Translations under genes and position numbers: made by a program
Assembly (NCBI RefSeq): GCF_000203815.1
Contig: NW_004457695.1
Span: forward strand, 1,360,054 to 1,424,053
Origin: Dictyostelium fasciculatum
Lineage: Eukaryota
Direction of reading: 5' to 3'
DNA: 64,000 nucleotides
Shown: positions 35,325 to 59,788 of the stretch, piece after piece
Layout of the letters: each line of letters opens with the position of its first letter
Position numbering within the stretch: the first letter of the stretch is position 1
The notes under the pieces: generated by a model
The model's input: the letters and a program-made list of their open reading frames with translations, nothing else
Told to the model about the DNA's origin: nothing
Database searches by the model: none

Positions 35325-36626
35325 TTATATTATATTTTTATCTATAAACTGACCACGAGATGGACCACTATATTTTTGTAATATATCTAAAATGTCAGAG
35401 GACTGAAATTTCATTTTAATTGTATTGGTTGAACCGTATTTGTCATTGATTATTAAAAGATAAACTTGGTTTTTCTTGTCAAATAGTCTAATTTGTAATA
35501 TTGTTTTGGAATGTCGATCCCTAAGTGCTCCCAAATGATTACTTGAAAGTATTGCCTTTTCAAAAGATGTTACATTTCTTTTGTTTCTGACAGAGGATAG
35601 TGGAAGTTCCAAGTAGAAATCATACCAAGGTTTAATTGGATTGTATATACCAACTGTCTGTAGATGATTATTATTTGGTAGTTGAGTAAAAAAATGTTTG
35701 TTGGTGACACTATTAAATATTTGAGGTATTCCAATATGACGTAGATTTGGTAATTGATTAAAAGGTACGGAAATAATACTGTCTAAACCAATAAGTTTGA
35801 TATTTAATATTTCCAATGATGATGGTAATTGATCAATTGTATCTTGATCATAGTATTTTAGATATACTTTTTTTAATCTCGGTCCAATATCATTATTAAT
35901 GTCTGCAATAATATTTAATTTAAGAGTACTGTGACAATATAGATGCTCCAAATGATAGGGTAGTGGTTGGGGTATAAAACATCCTTCCAATGTTTTAAGG
36001 GATACAGGTAATTTAGAGTACATGTCTACTATTACAGGTGGAGCCAGTCCAATGAATTCCAAGTTGCGTAATCCTTCTGGCAACCAACCATGAGGTATTG
36101 TTTTGGTGGGTACAGTAAAATTGTTTGAATAGTATGATCCATCGCCAATAGTGAGTGCAGTGAGCGACGGTGGTAATCGTATCTCTGAGATGTCTATCTG
36201 TTCGGCGATACCCTCTATAAACAAGTATCGCAATGACTTGAAAACCGTCAAATCACACGATGAAATGATCTTGGTGAGAACTAATCTAGGCAATGAATTG
36301 AAATAATAGTCTCTGTCCCTTGATATTAGGTCAAAATTATTGATTGGAAGAAATATACTTTCAGCCTTTGAAACTACTGTAGTGGGTAGTCTTGCAACAC
36401 CGACATGATCGATGAATCTTCTTCTTAGGTCAAACAGTCGATGACATGTAGCATGCAAACATATTCTTTCAGCATCCAAATCAATCTGTTGAATGATGTA
36501 TCTAATTACTACATTTGGTAATAGCAATAAATTGAATTGTACAACTTCTTCTTCTTCTAGGTTGTCCTCTTCTTTTTGTTCTATACCAAGAAGATTTAAA
36601 ATAGAGCCAAATATACGTCTAAACAT
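35325..36626 (-). CDS. F-box / FNIP-repeat protein (dictyostelid FNIP family), single exon
   Basis: The N-terminal LLLLPNVVIRYIIQQIDLDAERICLHATCHRLFDL is F-box-like. Repeated LPxSLTxL...FNxxI units are FNIP repeats. Confidence 0.65.
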   Translation of the reverse strand: MFRRIFGSILNLLGIEQKEEDNLEEEEVVQFNLLLLPNVVIRYIIQQIDLDAERICLHATCHRLFDLRRRFIDHVGVARLPTTVVSKAESIFLPINNFDLISRDRDYYFNSLPRLVLTKIISSCDLTVFKSLRYLFIEGIAEQIDISEIRLPPSLTALTIGDGSYYSNNFTVPTKTIPHGWLPEGLRNLEFIGLAPPVIVDMYSKLPVSLKTLEGCFIPQPLPYHLEHLYCHSTLKLNIIADINNDIGPRLKKVYLKYYDQDTIDQLPSSLEILNIKLIGLDSIISVPFNQLPNLRHIGIPQIFNSVTNKHFFTQLPNNNHLQTVGIYNPIKPWYDFYLELPLSSVRNKRNVTSFEKAILSSNHLGALRDRHSKTILQIRLFDKKNQVYLLIINDKYGSTNTIKMKFQSSDILDILQKYSGPSRGQFIDKNII

Positions 36627-36981
36627 GGTGCTATATTCAATTTCTTGATAATATAGGGATATCTATTATTCTATCTTCTCTCTTTTATTCTATTTCCTTT
36701 TTTAGAAAGATATAGTCAAAGAGTTCTAGGTTGACACTATCACCCAAAGAATGGGACAGTCTGCGAGAGAGGGTGAAAAATCGATTTTAATTAATTATTT
36801 TTGATTTTATTGGGTGGTGACAACACCACTCTTCAACATGAACAGAAGATTCTTTGAGTTGACATCATCGACCCTGTAAAAGCGTGAGAGTAAAATGAGT
36901 TTTATTATATATTCAATTGTTATTCTCTTACTTTCATTCTATCTCTATACAATTTATACAAACAAACAACAACATTATAAC

Positions 36982-37179
36982 ATGGCAAAGCTTAAAGTAG
37001 GCGACGACGCTCCAGAATTCACCAGTCAAGATGGCAACGGTAACTCTGTTACATTGGCTCAATTCAAAGGAAAGATTCTAGTACTCTATTTCTATCCAAA
37101 GGATGAAACTCCAGGTTGTACCAAGGAAGCTTGTAGTTTCCGTGATAGTTATGAAGATTTTACTAAAGCTGGTGCTTCT
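36982..37179 (+). CDS. Peroxiredoxin Q / BCP-type thiol peroxidase, exon 1
   Basis: MAKLKVGDDAPEFTSQDGNGNSVTLAQFKGKILVLYFYPKDETPGCTKEAC has the PxxxTxxC peroxidatic motif. An in-frame hydrophobic extension exists upstream from 36895. The donor GTAAGA is at 37180. Confidence 0.8.
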
Positions 37180-37272
37180 GTAAGAGAAAAAAGAAAAAAG
37201 AAAAAGAAAGAAATAGAAGATTTACTAATTAAACTTTAATTATTATTTATTACCCTTGTTTATTACTTTTAG

Positions 37273-37572
37273 GTTGTAGGAGTATCATCAGATTCAAAGG
37301 AATCACATCAAAAGTTTTCAGCCAAACATAGATTACCATTCACTCTATTGTCAGATGATGGTTCTTTGGCTAAAAAGTACAAGGTTGGCAAGAACCTTTT
37401 AGTTGTTCCAGCCCGTACTACCTTTATCATTGACCAAAACAGCAAGATTGTTTCTATTCACAACTCTTTATTCGATGCTGAATCACATATCAAGGAATCC
37501 TTAAAGGTTATCGAAGGATTGAAATCAACTACTCCCACAACTACTGCTTCTGACGCTTCTGCAGCAAACTAA
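37273..37572 (+). CDS. PrxQ/BCP exon 2
   Basis: VVGVSSDSKESHQKFSAKHRLPFTLLSDDGSLAKKYKV... is the AhpC/TSA fold. Confidence 0.8.
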   Translation, partial: VVGVSSDSKESHQKFSAKHRLPFTLLSDDGSLAKKYKVGKNLLVVPARTTFIIDQNSKIVSIHNSLFDAESHIKESLKVIEGLKSTTPTTTASDASAAN

Positions 37573-38036
37573 AAACAAAACAACAAACACAAACTATTAA
37601 TAATCACAACCATTTATATTTGTATATAAATAACTTTTTATCCTTCTTTTCTTTCTCTATATATATGTTTTACTTTTGCGCGAGTGTGTTATCTACTAAC
37701 ACACACAAACACAATTTGAACAAAACGCACAAACTTCTCCTTTTAAATAAATTATTATTATATATTTAACATTCTTGTAAATTTACACATCGTGTTGTAT
37801 TGATATGATCAAAAATGGAAGTTGATCATCATCGTCAGCACTCTCTTCAACAATTGCATGATTTAATTAAATTTTTAATTTCAAATGAAATCAAACCTGG
37901 GTGAGAACTGATATATCAGTTTAGTTTAGTTTGCTTGTTCTCACTACGTACATATATATATATATATATAAACCTAACTATTCATCCTCTCCCTATCTTT
38001 TATTCTTATTCTTTTCCCTCCTTTAAATTGATTAAT

Positions 38037-38083
38037 ATGACAGTTTTATCAAGAGATGAGGTACTTAAATGTATAGAATCAGG
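38037..38083 (+). CDS. dcd: dCTP deaminase (bacterial Dcd family), exon 1
   Basis: MTVLSRDEVLKCIESG resembles the E. coli Dcd start MRLCDRDIEAWLDEG. The donor GTAGGT is at 38084. Confidence 0.7.
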
Positions 38084-38148
38084 GTAGGTATTGATCAACA
38101 GATAAGAGATAGTAGCAGCAAGATTAGTAATACTAACATCTCCTTTAG

Positions 38149-38617
38149 TGAAATATCAATTAGTCCATTTGATCCAGATGCACTTGGTGGTGCCACATTG
38201 GATCTAACATTGTCAAATGAATTTAGAGTGTTTTCAAAAGAATCTGAAACCATTCTTGTCACTGATGAAACCAACTATAGAGATTATACCAAACATTTTG
38301 TACTAGGCGAAGGAGAGACTTTCATTTTAGAGCCAAGATCATTGGTTTTGGCCATCACCAAAGAGACCATCTCGCTCTCTCCCAACTATTGTGGTCTACT
38401 AGAAGGCAGATCTCGTTTTGCAAGAATGGGACTCTTTGTTCACTTGTCTACAGGTTTCATGCAACCATCCATCTCTAGTCGACAGGTTCTCGAAATATTC
38501 AATGCATCCAACAATCGTTTGGAACTAAAACCTGGATCTAAAATGTGTCAATTTATTTTTATGAAAATGGAAGGACAAGCTTCTTATACTGGTAGATTTA
38601 GAGATAATCATTTGTAA
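38149..38617 (+). CDS. dcd: dCTP deaminase exon 2
   Basis: EISISPFDPDALGGATLDLTLSNEFRVF...GRSRFARMGLFVHLSTGFMQP...ELKPGSKMCQFIF is close to bacterial Dcd throughout. Confidence 0.8.
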
Positions 38618-39347
38618 CAATAATAATAATAATAAAACAAACAGATAGTAATAATAAACATATAACAACAAACAAACTATACACATAATTGTGAAATGAG
38701 AGAATAATCTCATAACCAAACCAAACCAAACCAGGCTGCTAAAAATGTTTATTTTTGAAAGCTCGCAAATTTTAATGTTTTTTTTAAATTTTTATTCATT
38801 GATGATGACATTTCGACGGGTTGTTACAACCTTCTAACCAAAGTAATCATAGCTCTCTAATAGAGAGACAAAGGGATCTCTCTCATCTGTATTCTTTTAA
38901 CCTCCTGAACTGTGTGTGTGTGGTGAAGATTTCTTTTTACACCTCTAGATAATGGAATGAGGGGTGTCTTTTTCAAAAGTGAAAGAGTAAAAGTATATTA
39001 CCGTTTGAAAATCCGATGTCGAAAAAGGTAATTCATAGTGACTGAAGAGAAGATATTTTCTTGACCGGTGATTTTTTATTCATATTAAATTAAATTAAAA
39101 TTACAATAGAATATGCAAGCAAAGTTGTTTTCAATAAGGGTTTATGAATCATCTTTTATATTCTTCATTCATTCATTCATTTTGTATACATATATTGTTT
39201 TTTACTTCTTTTTTTTTTTTTTTTTAAGGTATAGTGTGTGTGTGTGTGATCTACAACTTTATTTGTTCATTGTGTACATATATATAGATAGATAGATAGA
39301 TAATTATAGAACCAATCACAATCAACAACCTTTATTTTTAAAAAAAG

Positions 39348-39502
39348 ATGGGATTACCAATTAAATCAGTACTCGGCGATGAGTATATCGATTACATTAC
39401 AATATCAATTCCATTCTTTTTGATATTAACATTGATTGAATTTATCTATTCAATTGTTAGAAAGAAAAAGATGGATTATACAATCACTGATTCAATTGGA
39501 AG
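39348..39502 (+). CDS. Fatty-acid hydroxylase superfamily enzyme (alkylglycerol monooxygenase / sterol desaturase-like), exon 1
   Basis: MGLPIKSVLGDEYIDYITISIPFFLILTLIEF... The donor GTAAAC is at 39503. Confidence 0.65.
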
Positions 39503-39587
39503 GTAAACAAAAAAAAACAAAAAGAAAAAGTATAGAAAAAAAACAAAGTTAAATTATTATTATTAACATTCTATTCTATAATTTTAG

Positions 39588-39840
39588 TTTTTCCACTGGA
39601 TTAACAACTGTAATTTTGGATAAATTAGTACCTGGAACATTGGCAAAAAGTTTAGAGTTTATTTGTGTGATTTATATTTATAAACATCATAGATTATTGA
39701 CTGTTGATGAAGATTCTAAATTGGCTTCGTTAGCATGTCTGGTTTTGGTTGATTTTGGGTATTATTGGTTTCATAGACTTGCTCATGAAATTAATGTTTT
39801 ATGGTCATCTCATTCAACTCATCATTCAAGTGAATTATAT
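39588..39840 (+). CDS. FA-hydroxylase exon 2 (His boxes 1-2)
   Basis: [25 protein letters not shown] is HxxxH...HxxHH. The donor is GTAAGG. Confidence 0.75.
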
Positions 39841-39929
39841 GTAAGGAAGATAATATAATATATAAAAAAAAAAACAAATCACTCTATCAATCATTTATTA
39901 ATATTTCTATTTTTCTATTTTTTTTAAAG

Positions 39930-40636
39930 AATTTAACAACAGCATTAAGACAAAATGCATTTCAACCATATGTTAGTTGGGTATTTTATTTACCATTGGG
40001 ATTTTTTATGCCACCAGGTATATTCTTTTTCCACAAACAATTTAATACGATTTCTCAATTTTGGATTCACACCAAATATATTCCTAAATTGGGTGCTATT
40101 GAATGGATATTTAATACACCATCACATCATAGAGTTCATCATGGTCGTAATCCAAAGTATTTGGATAAAAACTATGCAGGTTTATTGATTGTTTGGGATC
40201 GAATGTTTGGTACATTCCAAGAAGAGGAGGAGGAGGTATTTTATGGTTTGGTTGAACCAATCAATAGTTTTGATCCAACATGGGTACAATTCCATAACCT
40301 ATTCAAGGTTTATGAAAAAGCTGGCACTATGAAGACATTTGGAGACAAGATGAAAGCTATCTTTTATGGTCCAGGTTGGTATCCTGGACTACCACGTCTT
40401 GGTGATAACAATCTTTGTCCAATTCCAAAGGAATCTGAAAAACAAGGTCGTGTCGGTTATAGTCTACCAGGATTCATGGGTCTCTACATTTTTATTCAAT
40501 TTTTACTAGTCTCTCTTGGATCGCTTGTATTAATGGTTGTTTTTGAAAAACAACTTGGTCATCAAAATATTTCAATCATGTTAACCTTTTTATATATTTC
40601 ATTTACTACTATTGGTTCAATTAGTAGTAGAAAAGA
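39930..40636 (+). CDS. FA-hydroxylase exon 3 (His box 3, HHRVHHG)
   Basis: NLTTALRQNAFQPYVSW...NTPSHHRVHHGRNPKYLDKNYAGLLIVWDRMFGTF. Confidence 0.75.
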
Positions 40637-40717
40637 GTAAGACAAAAAAAAAAAACAGGAAAAAGAAAACAAAACAAAATTAACAAATGTTTATTTTATT
40701 TATTTTATTTCTTTTAG

Positions 40718-45970: not shown

Positions 45971-46320
45971 TATTAGATACAACTACGATTCCAGCCAATT
46001 CCAAATTACTATATAATACCAATCATCCAGATATCAATAGTGCCTATACATCGACTATTCTTTCACCTGTTCTTTCACCCATTCATTTGACACCTCTCCC
46101 ACCAATAACAACAACAACAACAACAACAACTATACCAACAATGAGTAAAAAGAGGCCAATTGATTCATTGGATGATGGTTATTCCGAAGATATCAAACAA
46201 GAAGAAGAACTCATGCCATCAGCAGATGGATTTACAACAAATGATGATTTAATGTCTCTTATGACTTTTTTAGAGTATGTATCAAAAATAATAATATTAT
46301 TTATGTTTTTTAAACTATAG
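45971..46320 (+). CDS. Small two-exon ORF, exon 2
   Basis: The frame is kept across a 124-nt GT-AG intron. ...MSKKRPIDSLDDGYSEDIKQEEELMPSADGFTTNDDLMSLMTFLE. An alternative GTATGT donor lies at 46275. Confidence 0.3.
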
Positions 46321-47066
46321 CAACAATCGATGCATGACGACACTATATATTTGTTTATTATTATAAAACTAGTTGGATGTGTTTTTATATCATTTTATTT
46401 TAAAAACTCTATTTATATGTGCATTGTATTCTTGTCTACCACCCACACACAATCTACACACACAACACTAATTAAATCACAAAATATCCCATACCACTTC
46501 TACTGATTGATGATGTTCTATCAATCATTGGTTCTCAACGCCTCCCCCTAATCCATCAATCCATCCATAATCTCTTCACAATCTTTCAAATCAATTCGAA
46601 AATTGGTTTGTTTGATTTTCTTTTAAACAATTCCAACAAGATCAAAAAGTGAATTTATATATATATATATATATTAAAGAATTGGTGGAAATAATGGAGG
46701 ATAAAGGAGAAGAGGTTTTATAACAACAAACAACTTGTAGTACTAGTTGTCCTCAAAAAAAATAATATTATTTTTTCATTGTAAACAAACTCTTTTTTTT
46801 TTCCACCAATCAATATTCAATTCAATTTTTTGTTTTAGCCAACCACACATCAAAGGAAGGTTTTCCAGTCCTGGTTGTACAAGAAGGAGAAGTTCAACTG
46901 CTCAATATTTTATTATTTATCTATTTTTTATAAATCTTTAATTTTACCATATTCTTTATATTTTCAAAGTTTTTTTTGTTTATTTGTTGTAAAAACATAT
47001 AATCAATTAAATAATCTACATTATAATAACCATCAGTGATATTTGAAAACTGGAATTTTTATAATA

Positions 47067-49217
47067 ATGAATTATTGTAATTCACCACACACCCCCACCA
47101 CCAACACTCTCATTCACCATACAAATATTGTTGGTTCAAAGAAACCTTTACCAGAAGTGATTAATATTAATAATAATAATAATAATAATATGTTGGCCTC
47201 TTCTTATATTACGAAGGAAGCAGCAGCAAACAAGTCACCTATGCTCGACCCGTCACCCTCCTCCTCCTCATCATCATCGTCCACCACACCTCCACTGTTG
47301 TTGACACCAAATATATTATTAATTCCGAATCTCATGAACAATTGTAATAATAGTAATAATAATAATACTAACCTATATAATCATCATCATAATCACATAA
47401 ATAGTCATGGACAAAATATCACTACCATAAAAACCGAGCCTGTTTCAACATTGCAATATCCACAACAACCGCAACAACAACAACCGCAACAACAACAACA
47501 ACAAGTTCAACAAGTTCAACAACAACAACAACAACCTCAATCCCAATATATTCATCCACCTCCAGCCTATATATATAACGGAAACGGAGGTACCCTTGAA
47601 GATCAACAACAACAACAACAACAATTACAACAACAACATCAAATCCAACAACAACAACTTTTACAACAACAAATTCTTCAACAACAACAATTCCAACAGC
47701 AACAACAACAACAACAACAACAACAAATTCAACAACATGTACAGTCGACTATGATTCAAGTCCAACAACAACAACAACAAGTCCAACAGCAACAACAACA
47801 ACAAGTTCAACAACAATTATCATCACCAAATAATAATAATCAAGAATCTATAATTATTACAACTAGTGGTATTAACGGTCAACAAACCTTGTCTATACAA
47901 CAACCACAACAACAAATGGCACCACAACCACATCAACAACAAACATTATCAATTCAACCACCACAACAAAATATACCATTACCACAACATCTTTTGGTTG
48001 CTCCATTTGGAAATCAAGCACCACAACCACACCAACAGATCATAAACGAATGTCTAAAGTTACATTTAGCACAAAAGGATCAATTGGAAAAGATGAAGGT
48101 TGTACAGAAACAAGTCTTGGCACATCCCCAAACCGAGACGTTCCAAATGCTCGACAATGAGCAAAACACTCTAAAGAAGCAGATTGACGCCGAATTGACG
48201 TCTCTACAACAGATCGATCAGACATTTGTATTGTCACCCACGGAAATCCGTAATGTTGTTTTTTTAATCCACGAACTCACCATCCAAAGTATCCAACTCG
48301 AATTGTATCATGAAGAGCTCCAGCTCCTCGTCCGTCCACAGAATCCACCACCCACCATTGCTGCACTCGTCGTCATTGAACAACCCTTCCCAATGGTTAT
48401 TACCAAGTGCAAGCCACTCGAAGATGATCCCGTCGTCGTCCAATTGCTCAGCGGAACACGTACCGAACTCCAACTCATTGGCAAGGTTCGCGCCACCATG
48501 ATTGTAGAGAACCAACAAAACTCCAAGACTTCAGGTTCACCAAAGACCATTGAAACTGAAGTTGTATCGATGGATGAAGTACAACGTCTTGCCAAATACC
48601 ATCTCAAGTTCCTCAATGGTACTCGTAAGAATCCAGTCACTCTCAAATTTGGTATGCAAGTCCAAGTTGTCGGTGGCACCCCTGTCAATATTGAAAGTCC
48701 ACCCACCTCTCCCTTTATCGTCATTACCAACGAGTGTCAATACGAAGAGTCTGATGGAACCCTACTCAAAAAGGACAGTTTTGGAAACAATGCCGAAATC
48801 CCATGGGCATCGTACGCCAACAAACTCCAACGTCACTTCCTCAGAGCCACTAGACAAGACTCGATCAAACCAACACGTTATCTATCGCGTCACGAACTCA
48901 TGTATCTACATCAACAATTCTTTGGTGGTCGTAGTATGGTTTCTCAGTCCATGTTTGACGCTTTTTGGAATTGGTTTGGAAAGGGTCTCCAAAAGCTTCG
49001 TTATCAACGTCATGTTTGCTCCATGTGGCAATCTGGTCTCATCTATGGTTTCATCTCTCGTCAAAGTGTAGAAGAAGCACTTCGAAATGAAGAGATGGGT
49101 ACTTTTCTCATTAGATTTAGTGAAAGACATGCTGGTCATTTTGCTATTGGTTATAAAGTTGATGATCCCGATCCTGAAAAAAGAATTAGACATTATTTAG
49201 TTAAAGCTGATGATACT
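47067..49217 (+). CDS. STAT family transcription factor (coiled-coil, DNA-binding, linker, SH2), main exon
   Basis: The SH2 core is [63 protein letters not shown] (STAT GTFLLRFSES). The N-terminus is polyQ. The donor GTAAAT is at 49218. Confidence 0.8.
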
Positions 49218-49287
49218 GTAAATATAAAAAATAGAAAAAAATCGAAAAAATAGAAATATATTAACTTTTTTATTTTAATTTTTTTTA

Positions 49288-49488
49288 GGCTGGAGCTAAA
49301 AAGACATTACCAGATTTCTTATCAGAATGTCCACAATTCACAAAGATTTTACAATTGACCATTGATCCAATAACGGGAGAACCAAGACTACGAAATTTCC
49401 CAAAAGATGTTGTTCTTGAACCATATTATTCTAAACGAGAAGCTTTACCAGCTACCAATGGTTACGATTCTTTACCAGTTTTAAATTA
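49288..49488 (+). CDS. STAT terminal exon (C-terminal tail with a GYDSLP tyrosine motif)
   Basis: [17 protein letters not shown]...[16 protein letters not shown]. Confidence 0.7.
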
Positions 49489-50503
49489 AACCTGGAAATT
49501 TAAAAAAATACCACCCACTTCTACTCACAACTCAACTTTGTTAATATCCTACCTTCCTCCTCATCTGACAAAATATTAAATTATTTTTTATAAAACTAGG
49601 TTGGAATCTAAAAGAAAAACAATGTACTTTTTTCATATATATACAATCAAAAAAAAAAAAAAGTACATATCCCTTTCTTTTATTCCTTTTTTATAATAAT
49701 AATAATCGTCAATAGTAAATACAACACTCTTATAACAACCAAATATATATATAACAAAAAAAAAAACAAAAAAAAAACAAAAAAAACAAAAAAAAAAACT
49801 CTACACTTACTTAACAAAACAACAAACAACGAAACAATACTTGTATATAATTACAGACCAAAACCAAAACTTTAACCTTTATATCTTATACTCATTAAAT
49901 AAATAAAATCCATTAATCAAAACATCAAGCGGAGAGATAGTACTTTATTCGGCCAACAGATACAGAATTGAAATATGCAAAAGAAAAGAATATAAATTAA
50001 TAAAATTTGGTTGTGGACCATCTTAATTTTCCTTTTATTAATAATTACCAAAAAGAGTCATGATGTTTGAATTATTTGTTCAACAGTGGAATGAAAACAA
50101 ACAACATTTATATATATTTTGTGTCAGAGTCATCAATAATAATAGATTAATTGATTCGATATTAGGGTTAAAATTATATTTTCGGCCAAGTTGTAAAAGA
50201 ATTACCCACCGATATTGTCAATATAAACAAAACACATTGACATTGACACAAACTAATAATAATAATAAAATCATATTCAAACAAATAAAAAAATGTCTTG
50301 CGAGGTTTGGTTGTCCCCAGTGCAGCAACAAAGTTTTGTCCAAAATATCTGACAAAAAATTGATTTTTCGTTAAAGTTGTTCTTCATTGCAACCAAACCC
50401 CTTCACATCTGTTTAACAAATAAGATAGATATTAGTAGTTGTAGTAATAAGAGTTATCAAAACTTTGTTAGTTAGATAGATTAAACTATTTCTCGTCAAG
50501 AAA

Positions 50504-53889: not shown

Positions 53890-54628
53890 GGAAGACAAAG
53901 GTGTTTGATAGGATGAGGATTTGATGGAATTTGATGGCGAATGAATAGAAATGCAGCCACGTTTACTAAACTATGCTCTATCTTGTCGAGGGCCCTACGA
54001 TATAGATAGTAATTGGATAGTTAAGTTATAATCAAGATCTTATATAAACTATGGTTAGTCTTATAGATTGTATAGTGTTATATAAAATGTAATAATAATG
54101 AATGATGAGAGCTGTTGCTCGTTTGTAGGTGCGTGAGAATTGGGATTTTGTAAAAATGGTCCATTCTCATTACACACGGATGAGTACTACACTAAGATGA
54201 AAAAATCCTTGGCACAAAACAACAAAAAGGTTGAGGCCCCATCGAGGTTCGAACTCGAGACCCCTTCCTTACTAGGGAAGTACAATAACCACTATGCTAT
54301 GGGGCCTTGCTTTTTTGATGCAAAATTCTCCATTCCCCCTATTTATACCCCCCTTTTACAAAGACCCTATCTATTTTTAGAACAAGCAACAATCCAAAAC
54401 AATCCAACATGCTTGACACTATACAAAAAGATACATGATCAACGTCCATACAACATGTATCATAGACATGGACAAACCCCCAGAACAAATTAACTTTAAT
54501 TCTTCTTGAGATAATCTTTATTTCTTGCTGGTCAATTAAAAAGTATAATTAATAAAACTTTGTGACTTCTGAGTACTACTCTTCCCGATAGGAGAGAACA
54601 GGAAAAGAATTACTTTAAAAAAAAAAAA
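53890..54628. repeat. Left arm of the inverted repeat pair; carries tRNA-Thr and ends in an A-run
   Basis: It is the reverse complement of 57627-58790 with indels. It ends in AAAGAATTACTTTAAAAAAAAAAAA at about 54605-54628. Confidence 0.8.
54234..54306 (-). tRNA. tRNA-Thr (anticodon AGU)
   Basis: GGCCCCATAGCATAGTGGTTATTGTACTTCCCTAGTAAGGAAGGGGTCTCGAGTTCGAACCTCGATGGGGCCT read on the minus strand. The anticodon loop is CTAGTAA, the T-arm is TCGAG/CTCGA and the acceptor is GGCCCCA/TGGGGCC. Confidence 0.85.
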
Positions 54629-59708: not shown

Positions 59709-59788
59709 GATTCTTTGGTCGAGCGGTCTAAGACGTCAGTTTAAGGCACTGATCCTCCGGGGCGTGGGTTCAAATCCCACAGGAATCA
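59709..59788 (+). tRNA. tRNA-Leu (anticodon AAG), class II with an 11-nt variable arm
   Basis: The acceptor is GATTCTT/AGGAATC plus a discriminator A. The D-arm is GTC..GAC, the anticodon loop is TTAAGGC, and the T-arm is GTGGGTTCAAATCCCAC. Confidence 0.8.

Follow-up and report, generated by a model that had tools for sequence, protein, structure and literature searches.

The DNA considered here is a 64,000-nucleotide (nt) stretch (the window) from the nuclear genome of a social amoeba, Cavenderia fasciculata (group 1 Dictyostelia), and attention centers on the dcd1 gene at positions 38037 to 38617. We are highly confident that this locus is the two-exon nuclear dcd1 of C. fasciculata, encoding a 171-residue deoxycytidine triphosphate (dCTP) deaminase, and that it has been inherited vertically together with an ancient intron. 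Neither the gene, nor the intron, nor the old prokaryotic ancestry is new: all three have been known since 2023, when Liang, Mower and Chia (Mol Biol Evol 40:msad268; PMC10733785) covered dcd1 function, phylogeny, and the intron, which is designated i1. Their supplement lists C. fasciculata dcd1 as XM_004355606.1/XP_004355659 with a coding sequence (CDS) guanine-plus-cytosine (GC) content of 36.7%, and the window gene agrees with that entry both in CDS GC (36.6%) and in its active-site Thr. An ancient gene transfer that shaped the supply of deoxythymidine triphosphate (dTTP) in AT-rich genomes is interesting, but it has been published with functional tests that include this gene, and the present analysis matters little beyond confirmation. 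Its by-products are a corrected gene model, the position of i1, a linkage between dcd1 and a STAT gene, and a divergent copy accompanied by a probably dead duplicate.

The start codon of dcd1 lies at 38037, and the spliced CDS, as read from the sequence, comprises 516 nt and specifies a protein of 171 residues. The gene is composed of the following elements.

38037-38083, + strand: dcd1 exon 1, 47 nt including the ATG, with 15 codons plus GG; it encodes MTVLSRDEVLKCIES, and its last two bases open the Gly16 codon
38084-38148, + strand: dcd1 intron (designated i1 in the eukaryotic dcd1 clade), spliceosomal, 65 nt, phase 2, GTAGGT...TTTAG
38131-38137, + strand: TACTAAC branch-point consensus, a perfect match, 11 nt upstream of the AG acceptor
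38149-38617, + strand: dcd1 exon 2, residues 16 to 171, with the TAA stop codon at 38615-38617

The 3' end of the intron reads ...AATACTAACATCTCCTTTAG and is followed by the T that opens exon 2; the reading frame is restored across the junction, where GG plus T forms Gly16. Without splicing, the exon 1 frame runs immediately into a stop codon (MTVLSRDEVLKCIESG*). The segment from 38084 to 38148 therefore has GT..AG ends, a branch site, a restored frame, and a conserved position, and by these features it reads as a genuine intron of the spliceosomal type; the consensus match suggests that TACTAAC serves as the branch site. The 16 residues of exon 1 are conserved in all orthologues, and with this peptide included the Pfam DCD match, otherwise limited to profile positions 14 to 153, covers positions 1 to 153. 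The N termini of the transcriptome-derived orthologues (P0011 to P0022; 96 to 100% query coverage) are likewise contiguous. Because the exon 1 residues are conserved and the intron position is shared with six other genomes, exon 1 and the intron are not a chance arrangement.

A preliminary description of this DNA had proposed a bacterial-type dCTP deaminase gene with a 65-nt GTAGGT...TTTAG intron, and the sequence and the Pfam and TIGR matches (see below) confirm this. The end-to-end match to Dcd that it claimed also holds, with a product of 171 rather than 172 residues. The motifs it quoted (MxLxDRDI..G and GRSSLARLGLxVH) correspond to an E. coli-like consensus; the residues actually encoded are MTVLSRDEV...G at the N terminus and GRSRFARMGLFVH. 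It was right that a table of open reading frames (ORFs) misses exon 1, since the ORF at 38069 to 38617 (182 residues) begins within exon 1 at an out-of-frame ATG and continues across the intron.

That ORF invites the suggestion that the locus represents bacterial contamination of the assembly, or an intronless, bacterial-style ORF starting at ATG 38069. The exon 2 frame is indeed open through the intron as far as that ATG, and the 182-residue product scores 127.1 bits against Pfam DCD. However, the match covers only profile positions 14 to 153; the ORF lacks positions 1 to 13 and bears 26 nonhomologous residues in addition, whereas the conserved N terminus is encoded further upstream, in a different frame, and its junction with exon 2 coincides exactly with the GT..AG boundaries of an intron with TACTAAC. 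The same intron is present in six other genomes, the neighbors are intron-containing eukaryotic genes and include FNIP-repeat and Dict-STAT genes, and GC content across the window is 28 to 40% throughout. The probability of contamination or of an unspliced bacterial-style ORF is negligible.

The spliced two-exon product was matched by Pfam DCD (PF22769) over profile positions 1 to 153 of 153 (139.5 bits, 1.3e-40, cutoff of 27) and by the TIGR02274 dCTP_deam equivalog (122 bits, cutoff of 92.8). The solved relatives that it matched best were E. coli Dcd (1xs1; 3.8e-21) and the Mycobacterium tuberculosis enzyme (8.1e-21). Four residues (Ser104, Arg108, His114, and Glu131) align with E. coli Ser111, Arg115, His121, and Glu138; all four are retained, their columns are invariant in an alignment of 41 sequences, and the window product keeps 17 of the 17 invariant columns. 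An AlphaFold2 model built with 41 homologues (predicted local distance difference test score, 93.5; predicted template modeling score, 0.86) predicts a subunit with a dUTPase-like beta-barrel fold. A Foldseek search against the PDB with this model returned M. tuberculosis and E. coli Dcd with template modeling (TM) scores of 0.85 to 0.87 and root mean square deviations of 1.8 to 2.6 Å, and DCD-DUT structures were among the matches. The window product thus belongs, end to end, to the dCTP deaminase family of the trimeric dUTPase superfamily.

Two positions distinguish the window protein from E. coli Dcd. The active-site Ala (E. coli Ala124) is Thr117 in the window protein, which reads HLSTGF where the consensus is HITAGF. 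Only C. fasciculata XP_004355659 shows this Ala-to-Thr change, and Pro or Ser stands at that site in some homologues from bacteria, archaea, and viruses (PMC10733785, supplement); Ala is therefore not an absolute requirement there. The second position is the Asp of dUTPase motif III, which lies outside the four active-site residues checked in the 2023 paper (PMC10733785). It is Gln121 in the window protein and Asn or Gln across the whole Dcd1 subfamily, prokaryotes included, whereas it is present in M. tuberculosis (GFIDPGF) and E. coli (RIDPGW). Where those enzymes read DPG the window protein reads QPS; N/Q-P-G is subfamily wide, and the change of Gly to Ser alone is peculiar to the window gene. 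In dUTPases, the alpha-phosphate is attacked by a water molecule that the motif III Asp activates. Since this Asp is absent, the window enzyme is more likely monofunctional than a bifunctional DCD-DUT. The Asp is necessary but not sufficient for bifunctionality, being kept by the monofunctional E. coli Dcd, and it counts against the call of monofunctionality that it would hang on one residue together with general knowledge of dUTPase catalysis.

Exon structures were mapped on the genomic loci of six orthologues and on the window gene. In four dictyostelids, as in Naegleria lovaniensis, the first intron follows CDS nt 47; in Gigaspora rosea, in which there is one extra N-terminal residue, it follows nt 50. 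On the protein alignment, i1 occupies the same column in the same phase (phase 2) in all seven genes (C. fasciculata, Heterostelium, Dictyostelium firmibasis, Acytostelium, Tieghemostelium, N. lovaniensis, and G. rosea). Because column and phase are identical in five dictyostelid genera, Naegleria, and Gigaspora, comparison of these sequences indicates that i1 of C. fasciculata is ancient and not a recent gain. The identical position across three supergroups is an independent confirmation of the published finding that i1 is common to Amoebozoa, fungi, and Naegleria, which backs acquisition of the gene more than 1,500 million years ago (PMC10733785). Heterostelium, Acytostelium, Tieghemostelium, and D. 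firmibasis share a second intron (after codon 137, phase 0); the window gene does not have it, which implies that it was lost in the Cavenderia lineage.

The distribution of the protein is broad within eukaryotes. Full-length orthologues with 62 to 67% identity were found in Acytostelium, Heterostelium, Tieghemostelium, Polysphondylium, Dictyostelium purpureum, and D. firmibasis, the last in a sequence cluster that includes Dictyostelium discoideum AX4 EAL60602/Q54BK9. Orthologues of 171 to 174 residues occur in these dictyostelids and in other eukaryotic supergroups, and the gene is present in every dictyostelid genus sampled and in all four groups. Proteins with 46 to 57% identity occur in Physarum, Naegleria, Acrasis, Paratrimastix, Barthelona, TZLM1-RC, TZLM3-RCL, Aduncisulcus, Gigaspora, and Glomus, and many transcriptome-derived EukProt entries were also matched (53 to 58% identity among the full-length ones). 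The best database matches of the window protein are all eukaryotic.

Prokaryotes were scanned with one genome per species, relatives being defined by the signature EGRSRFAR[MLI]G. At least 598 bacterial and archaeal genomes encode such relatives, the best with 46 to 53% identity, and on this basis a prokaryotic ultimate ancestry of dcd1 is supported. The closest prokaryotes were Vulcanimicrobiota, picocyanobacteria, Methylomirabilis, metagenome-assembled genomes of Rickettsiales, Woesearchaeota, and others; the Rickettsiales sequences (46 to 47% identity) are no nearer than those of Vulcanimicrobiota, cyanobacteria, and Methylomirabilis (50 to 53%). In a neighbor-joining (NJ) tree of 93 sequences (Kimura distances, 171 columns, 200 bootstraps), a clade with 81% support united the dictyostelids, the window gene and D. 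discoideum Dcd1 (Q54BK9) among them, and all named eukaryotes and transcriptome sequences fell into one clade that contained no named prokaryote. Two aspects of this tree speak less well for a single early eukaryotic acquisition: the support for the eukaryote clade is weak (99 of 200 bootstraps), and among the 93 sequences no resolved prokaryotic sister that would point to a donor lineage was recovered. The published phylogeny finds the eukaryotic Dcd1 clade (Amoebozoa, Obazoa, Metamonada, and Discoba) to be monophyletic (bootstrap, 92) and nested within bacteria and archaea (bootstrap, 100), with a mitochondrial origin that could not be rejected (P = 0.073) (PMC10733785).

One metagenome sequence within the eukaryote clade (P0032; 52% identity to the window protein) was considered as a prokaryotic donor. 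It derives from an intronless dcd1 (L087, 8001-8513; GROS21-1 scaffold_235) on a contig of 111 kb that is gene dense and apparently intron poor and that carries Svf1, NOL10, WD40, and kinase genes; these genes mark it as eukaryotic and rule it out as a donor.

The surroundings of dcd1 within the window were compared with those of its dictyostelid orthologues. The nearest genes and the Dict-STAT gene are as follows.

35325-36626, - strand: FNIP-repeat ORF, 433 residues, single exon, weak FNIP match
36895-37572, + strand: AhpC/TSA (BCP-type) peroxiredoxin gene directly upstream of dcd1, with at least two exons (Pfam positions 1-62 and 89-122 in separate ORFs)
39348-40640, + strand: fatty-acid hydroxylase superfamily gene downstream of dcd1, intron split (profile positions 2-37 and 65-132 in different ORFs)
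∼47043-49500, + strand: Dict-STAT gene (STAT coiled-coil/SH2), with a possible upstream exon near 46080-46300

FNIP repeats are a family typical of dictyostelids. The dcd1 CDS has a GC content of 36.6%, with 27% at third codon positions (GC3), and its flanks have 27 to 29% GC, which is host-like and bears out the AT-rich flanks of the preliminary description. Since the neighbors are eukaryotic and intron split and the composition is host-like, dcd1 is integrated in a eukaryotic nuclear genome, as that description had maintained, and contamination is excluded. By TBLASTX, the Dict-STAT of the window shares 88 to 93% amino acid identity with the STAT genes beside dcd1 in Acytostelium (L003) and Tieghemostelium (L004). 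The distance between dcd1 and STAT is 1.3 to 2.5 kb in Tieghemostelium and Acytostelium and ∼9 kb in the window, where STAT lies downstream. Because STAT is found near dcd1 in all three genera, which represent dictyostelid groups 1 to 3, this linkage has been kept since the dictyostelid ancestor.

These data bear directly on the proposal, made in the preliminary description, that dcd1 is a horizontal-transfer candidate with later intron gain. Its first element survives as prokaryotic ultimate ancestry; a fresh transfer in the lineage of C. fasciculata, with a new intron gained afterward, does not. Such a recent event could draw on the overwhelmingly prokaryotic distribution of the family, with its hundreds of genomes carrying close relatives, and on the use of deoxycytidine monophosphate (dCMP) deaminase by most eukaryotes instead (PMC10733785). 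Yet orthologues occur in all four dictyostelid groups and in other supergroups at about 50 to 67% identity, which equals or exceeds that of any prokaryote, and the protein groups with a broadly eukaryotic set (dictyostelids, Physarum, Naegleria, Acrasis, metamonads, and glomeromycetes), the very outcome that the preliminary description had named as contradicting it. The intron column and phase are identical in Amoebozoa, Naegleria, and Gigaspora, the dcd1-STAT linkage is conserved among dictyostelids, and GC and GC3 are fully host-like. No specific donor emerges from the prokaryote scan or from the NJ tree, and the published phylogeny disagrees with a recent transfer (PMC10733785). A recent, lineage-specific acquisition is thus very improbable, and vertical inheritance of an old gene with an old intron is preferred.

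Comparison with the deposited GenBank model revealed a discrepancy at the 3' end of dcd1. The top database match of the window protein was the GenBank entry "dCTP deaminase [Cavenderia fasciculata]" (P0001), with 100% identity over 95% of the query. This model has the same N terminus and the same intron (38084-38148) as the one given here but a different C terminus, which results from a further intron.

38592-39109, + strand: deposited "second intron" of dcd1, 518 nt; the C terminus of P0001 ends in ...SYTEYASKVVFNKGL

The deposited splice replaces the conserved C terminus GRFRDNHL with EYASKVVFNKGL, whereas the unspliced reading ends in ...SYTGRFRDNHL*. Every orthologue ends in the pattern Y-x-G-x-F-x-x-(N/Q)-x-L, which matches the unspliced reading, and Y162, G164, and F166 are conserved at 90% or more in the alignment of homologues. 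The second C. fasciculata copy (P0002; see below) likewise ends in ...YTGRFRDNHL. Because the orthologues and the second copy carry a C terminus of the unspliced type, the deposited 3' intron is probably a misannotation and the unspliced, 171-residue reading is probably correct. The corrected C. fasciculata dcd1 model thus has 171 residues and no 3' intron.

Several observations weigh against the window gene being an ordinary, fully proficient member of the family. Among dictyostelid Dcd1 proteins the window copy diverges most, with 63 to 67% identity to the others compared with 70 to 80% among the other genera, and it departs at six positions from columns conserved at 90% or more, with two of the departures (A117T and G123S) beside the active site. 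The activity of the protein may be reduced or altered as a consequence of such changes. Furthermore, a second, near-identical dcd1 copy (P0002) lies on the same 3.47-Mb C. fasciculata contig, outside the window, where its model is fused to cytochrome c oxidase subunit V/Vb (cox5). P0002 agrees with the window protein at every one of residues 1 to 89; after these, VFALSQLLWSTRR, a frameshift-like patch, stands in place of ISLSPNYCGLLEGRSRFAR, which deletes EGRSRFAR with the catalytic Ser and Arg, and four more substitutions follow. P0002 probably arose by recent duplication and became a pseudogene, or else it reflects an assembly or model error. Within the window itself, BLASTN and TBLASTN searches for a paralogue of dcd1 matched only dcd1 itself.

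It could be argued from this that constraint on the window copy was relaxed after duplication and that the copy is decaying or functionally shifted and is no longer a proficient dCTP deaminase. The divergence, the six departures, the patch that destroys EGRSRFAR in the near-identical copy, and the loss of the second dictyostelid intron would all fit such a course. Against it, the ORF and splice signals are intact, the catalytic Ser, Arg, His, and Glu and the full set of invariant columns are kept, and the fold is confidently predicted. Two of the seemingly deviant residues, T32 and A84, are those of E. coli Dcd at the same positions, and Pro or Ser is found at the Ala position in some bacterial, archaeal, and viral homologues. 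Decay or a shift of function is accordingly an unlikely reading, though less so than contamination or recent transfer, and a functional, vertically inherited dcd1 remains preferred.

A related scenario, which we put forward tentatively and regard as improbable, is that C. fasciculata Dcd1 is being remodeled after duplication and, separately, that Asn or Gln in place of the motif III Asp may mark a strictly monofunctional Dcd subclass. Under remodeling, one copy may have been frameshifted across EGRSRFAR while the surviving window copy may be the fastest-evolving dictyostelid Dcd1. If this were true, the outcome could be a changed substrate specificity, a change in feedback regulation by dTTP, or incipient loss.

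A working model for the function of the window gene can be drawn from the enzyme family and from the tested orthologue. The product would assemble as a homotrimer and convert dCTP to deoxyuridine triphosphate (dUTP) by hydrolytic deamination through Ser104, Arg108, and Glu131, a reaction that is Mg2+ dependent in the family. A separate dUTPase would then yield deoxyuridine monophosphate (dUMP), from which ThyX would produce dTTP, following the pathway described previously (PMC10733785). Dcd1 would in this way provide a second dTTP route, beside that of dCMP deaminase, in an AT-rich genome; social amoebae would possess a bacterial-style dCTP-to-dUTP route alongside the usual eukaryotic one. In support of such a role for the orthologues, D. 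discoideum Dcd1 and Dcd2 each return an E. coli dcd knockout to wild-type growth, and Dcd1Dicty makes a Schizosaccharomyces pombe dCMP deaminase knockout less sensitive to hydroxyurea (PMC10733785). The window gene was inherited vertically from the dictyostelid ancestor, and the Dcd1 clade to which it belongs is old, patchy in eukaryotes, and derived very early from a prokaryotic source, either through horizontal transfer or perhaps via the mitochondrion.

Additional features of the window are listed here.

37955-37975: simple repeat (TA)n, ∼60 nt upstream of the dcd1 ATG
38618-38640: simple repeat (AAT)n, directly after the dcd1 stop codon
38716-38735: simple repeat (AACCA)n, further downstream of dcd1
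54233-54306, - strand: transfer RNA (tRNA) gene, tRNA-Thr(AGT), Rfam 60.7 bits
58566-58639, + strand: tRNA-Thr(AGT), Rfam 60.7 bits, the same score as the first
59709-59788, + strand: tRNA-Leu(AAG)

The simple repeats around dcd1 are low-complexity sequence typical of dictyostelid intergenic regions. The two tRNA-Thr(AGT) genes are oppositely oriented and ∼4.3 kb apart, and local GC rises to 37 to 40%. The tRNA and Rfam scans of the window returned nothing related to the dcd1 locus.

Among known systems, D. discoideum Dcd1 (DDB_G0293580) is the closest characterized counterpart of the window protein, orthologous to it with 62 to 63% identity over the full length and placed in the same dictyostelid clade. 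Both genes have i1 at codon 16 in phase 2, and both products carry the subfamily signature EGRSRFAR-G...H...(N/Q)P...QVLE. It differs from D. discoideum Dcd1 in lacking the second intron (after codon 137), in two substitutions (Thr in place of the active-site Ala, and Ser in place of the nearly invariant Gly123), and in its longer branch. Dictyostelium Dcd2 (DDB_G0268194) belongs to the same enzyme family and has the same pathway role in social amoebae, but it is a separate, independently acquired paralogue related to giant-virus and CPR-bacterial sequences (PMC10733785); C. fasciculata dcd2 is another transcript, XM_004360504.1 (PMC10733785), and lies elsewhere than in the window.

The monofunctional E. 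coli Dcd (1xs1; EC 3.5.4.13) has the same fold as the window protein (TM score of 0.86), ∼31% identity, and the same catalytic residues, and it can be replaced in vivo by the D. discoideum orthologue (PMC10733785). Compared with the E. coli enzyme, the window protein is ∼20 residues shorter, without the insertion at approximately E. coli residues 50 to 65 and without a portion of the C-terminal tail; Q-P-S replaces D128-P-G and Thr replaces Ala124, and its gene is nuclear and intron containing. The bifunctional DCD-DUT enzymes of M. tuberculosis (2qlp/2qxx) and Methanocaldococcus jannaschii (1ogh) have the same fold and a similar length, and in the structural comparison the M. tuberculosis enzyme ranked first (TM score of 0.87, 31% identity). 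The motif III Asp of the M. tuberculosis enzyme (in GFIDPGF) corresponds to Gln in the window protein, a difference that would make dUTPase activity unlikely.

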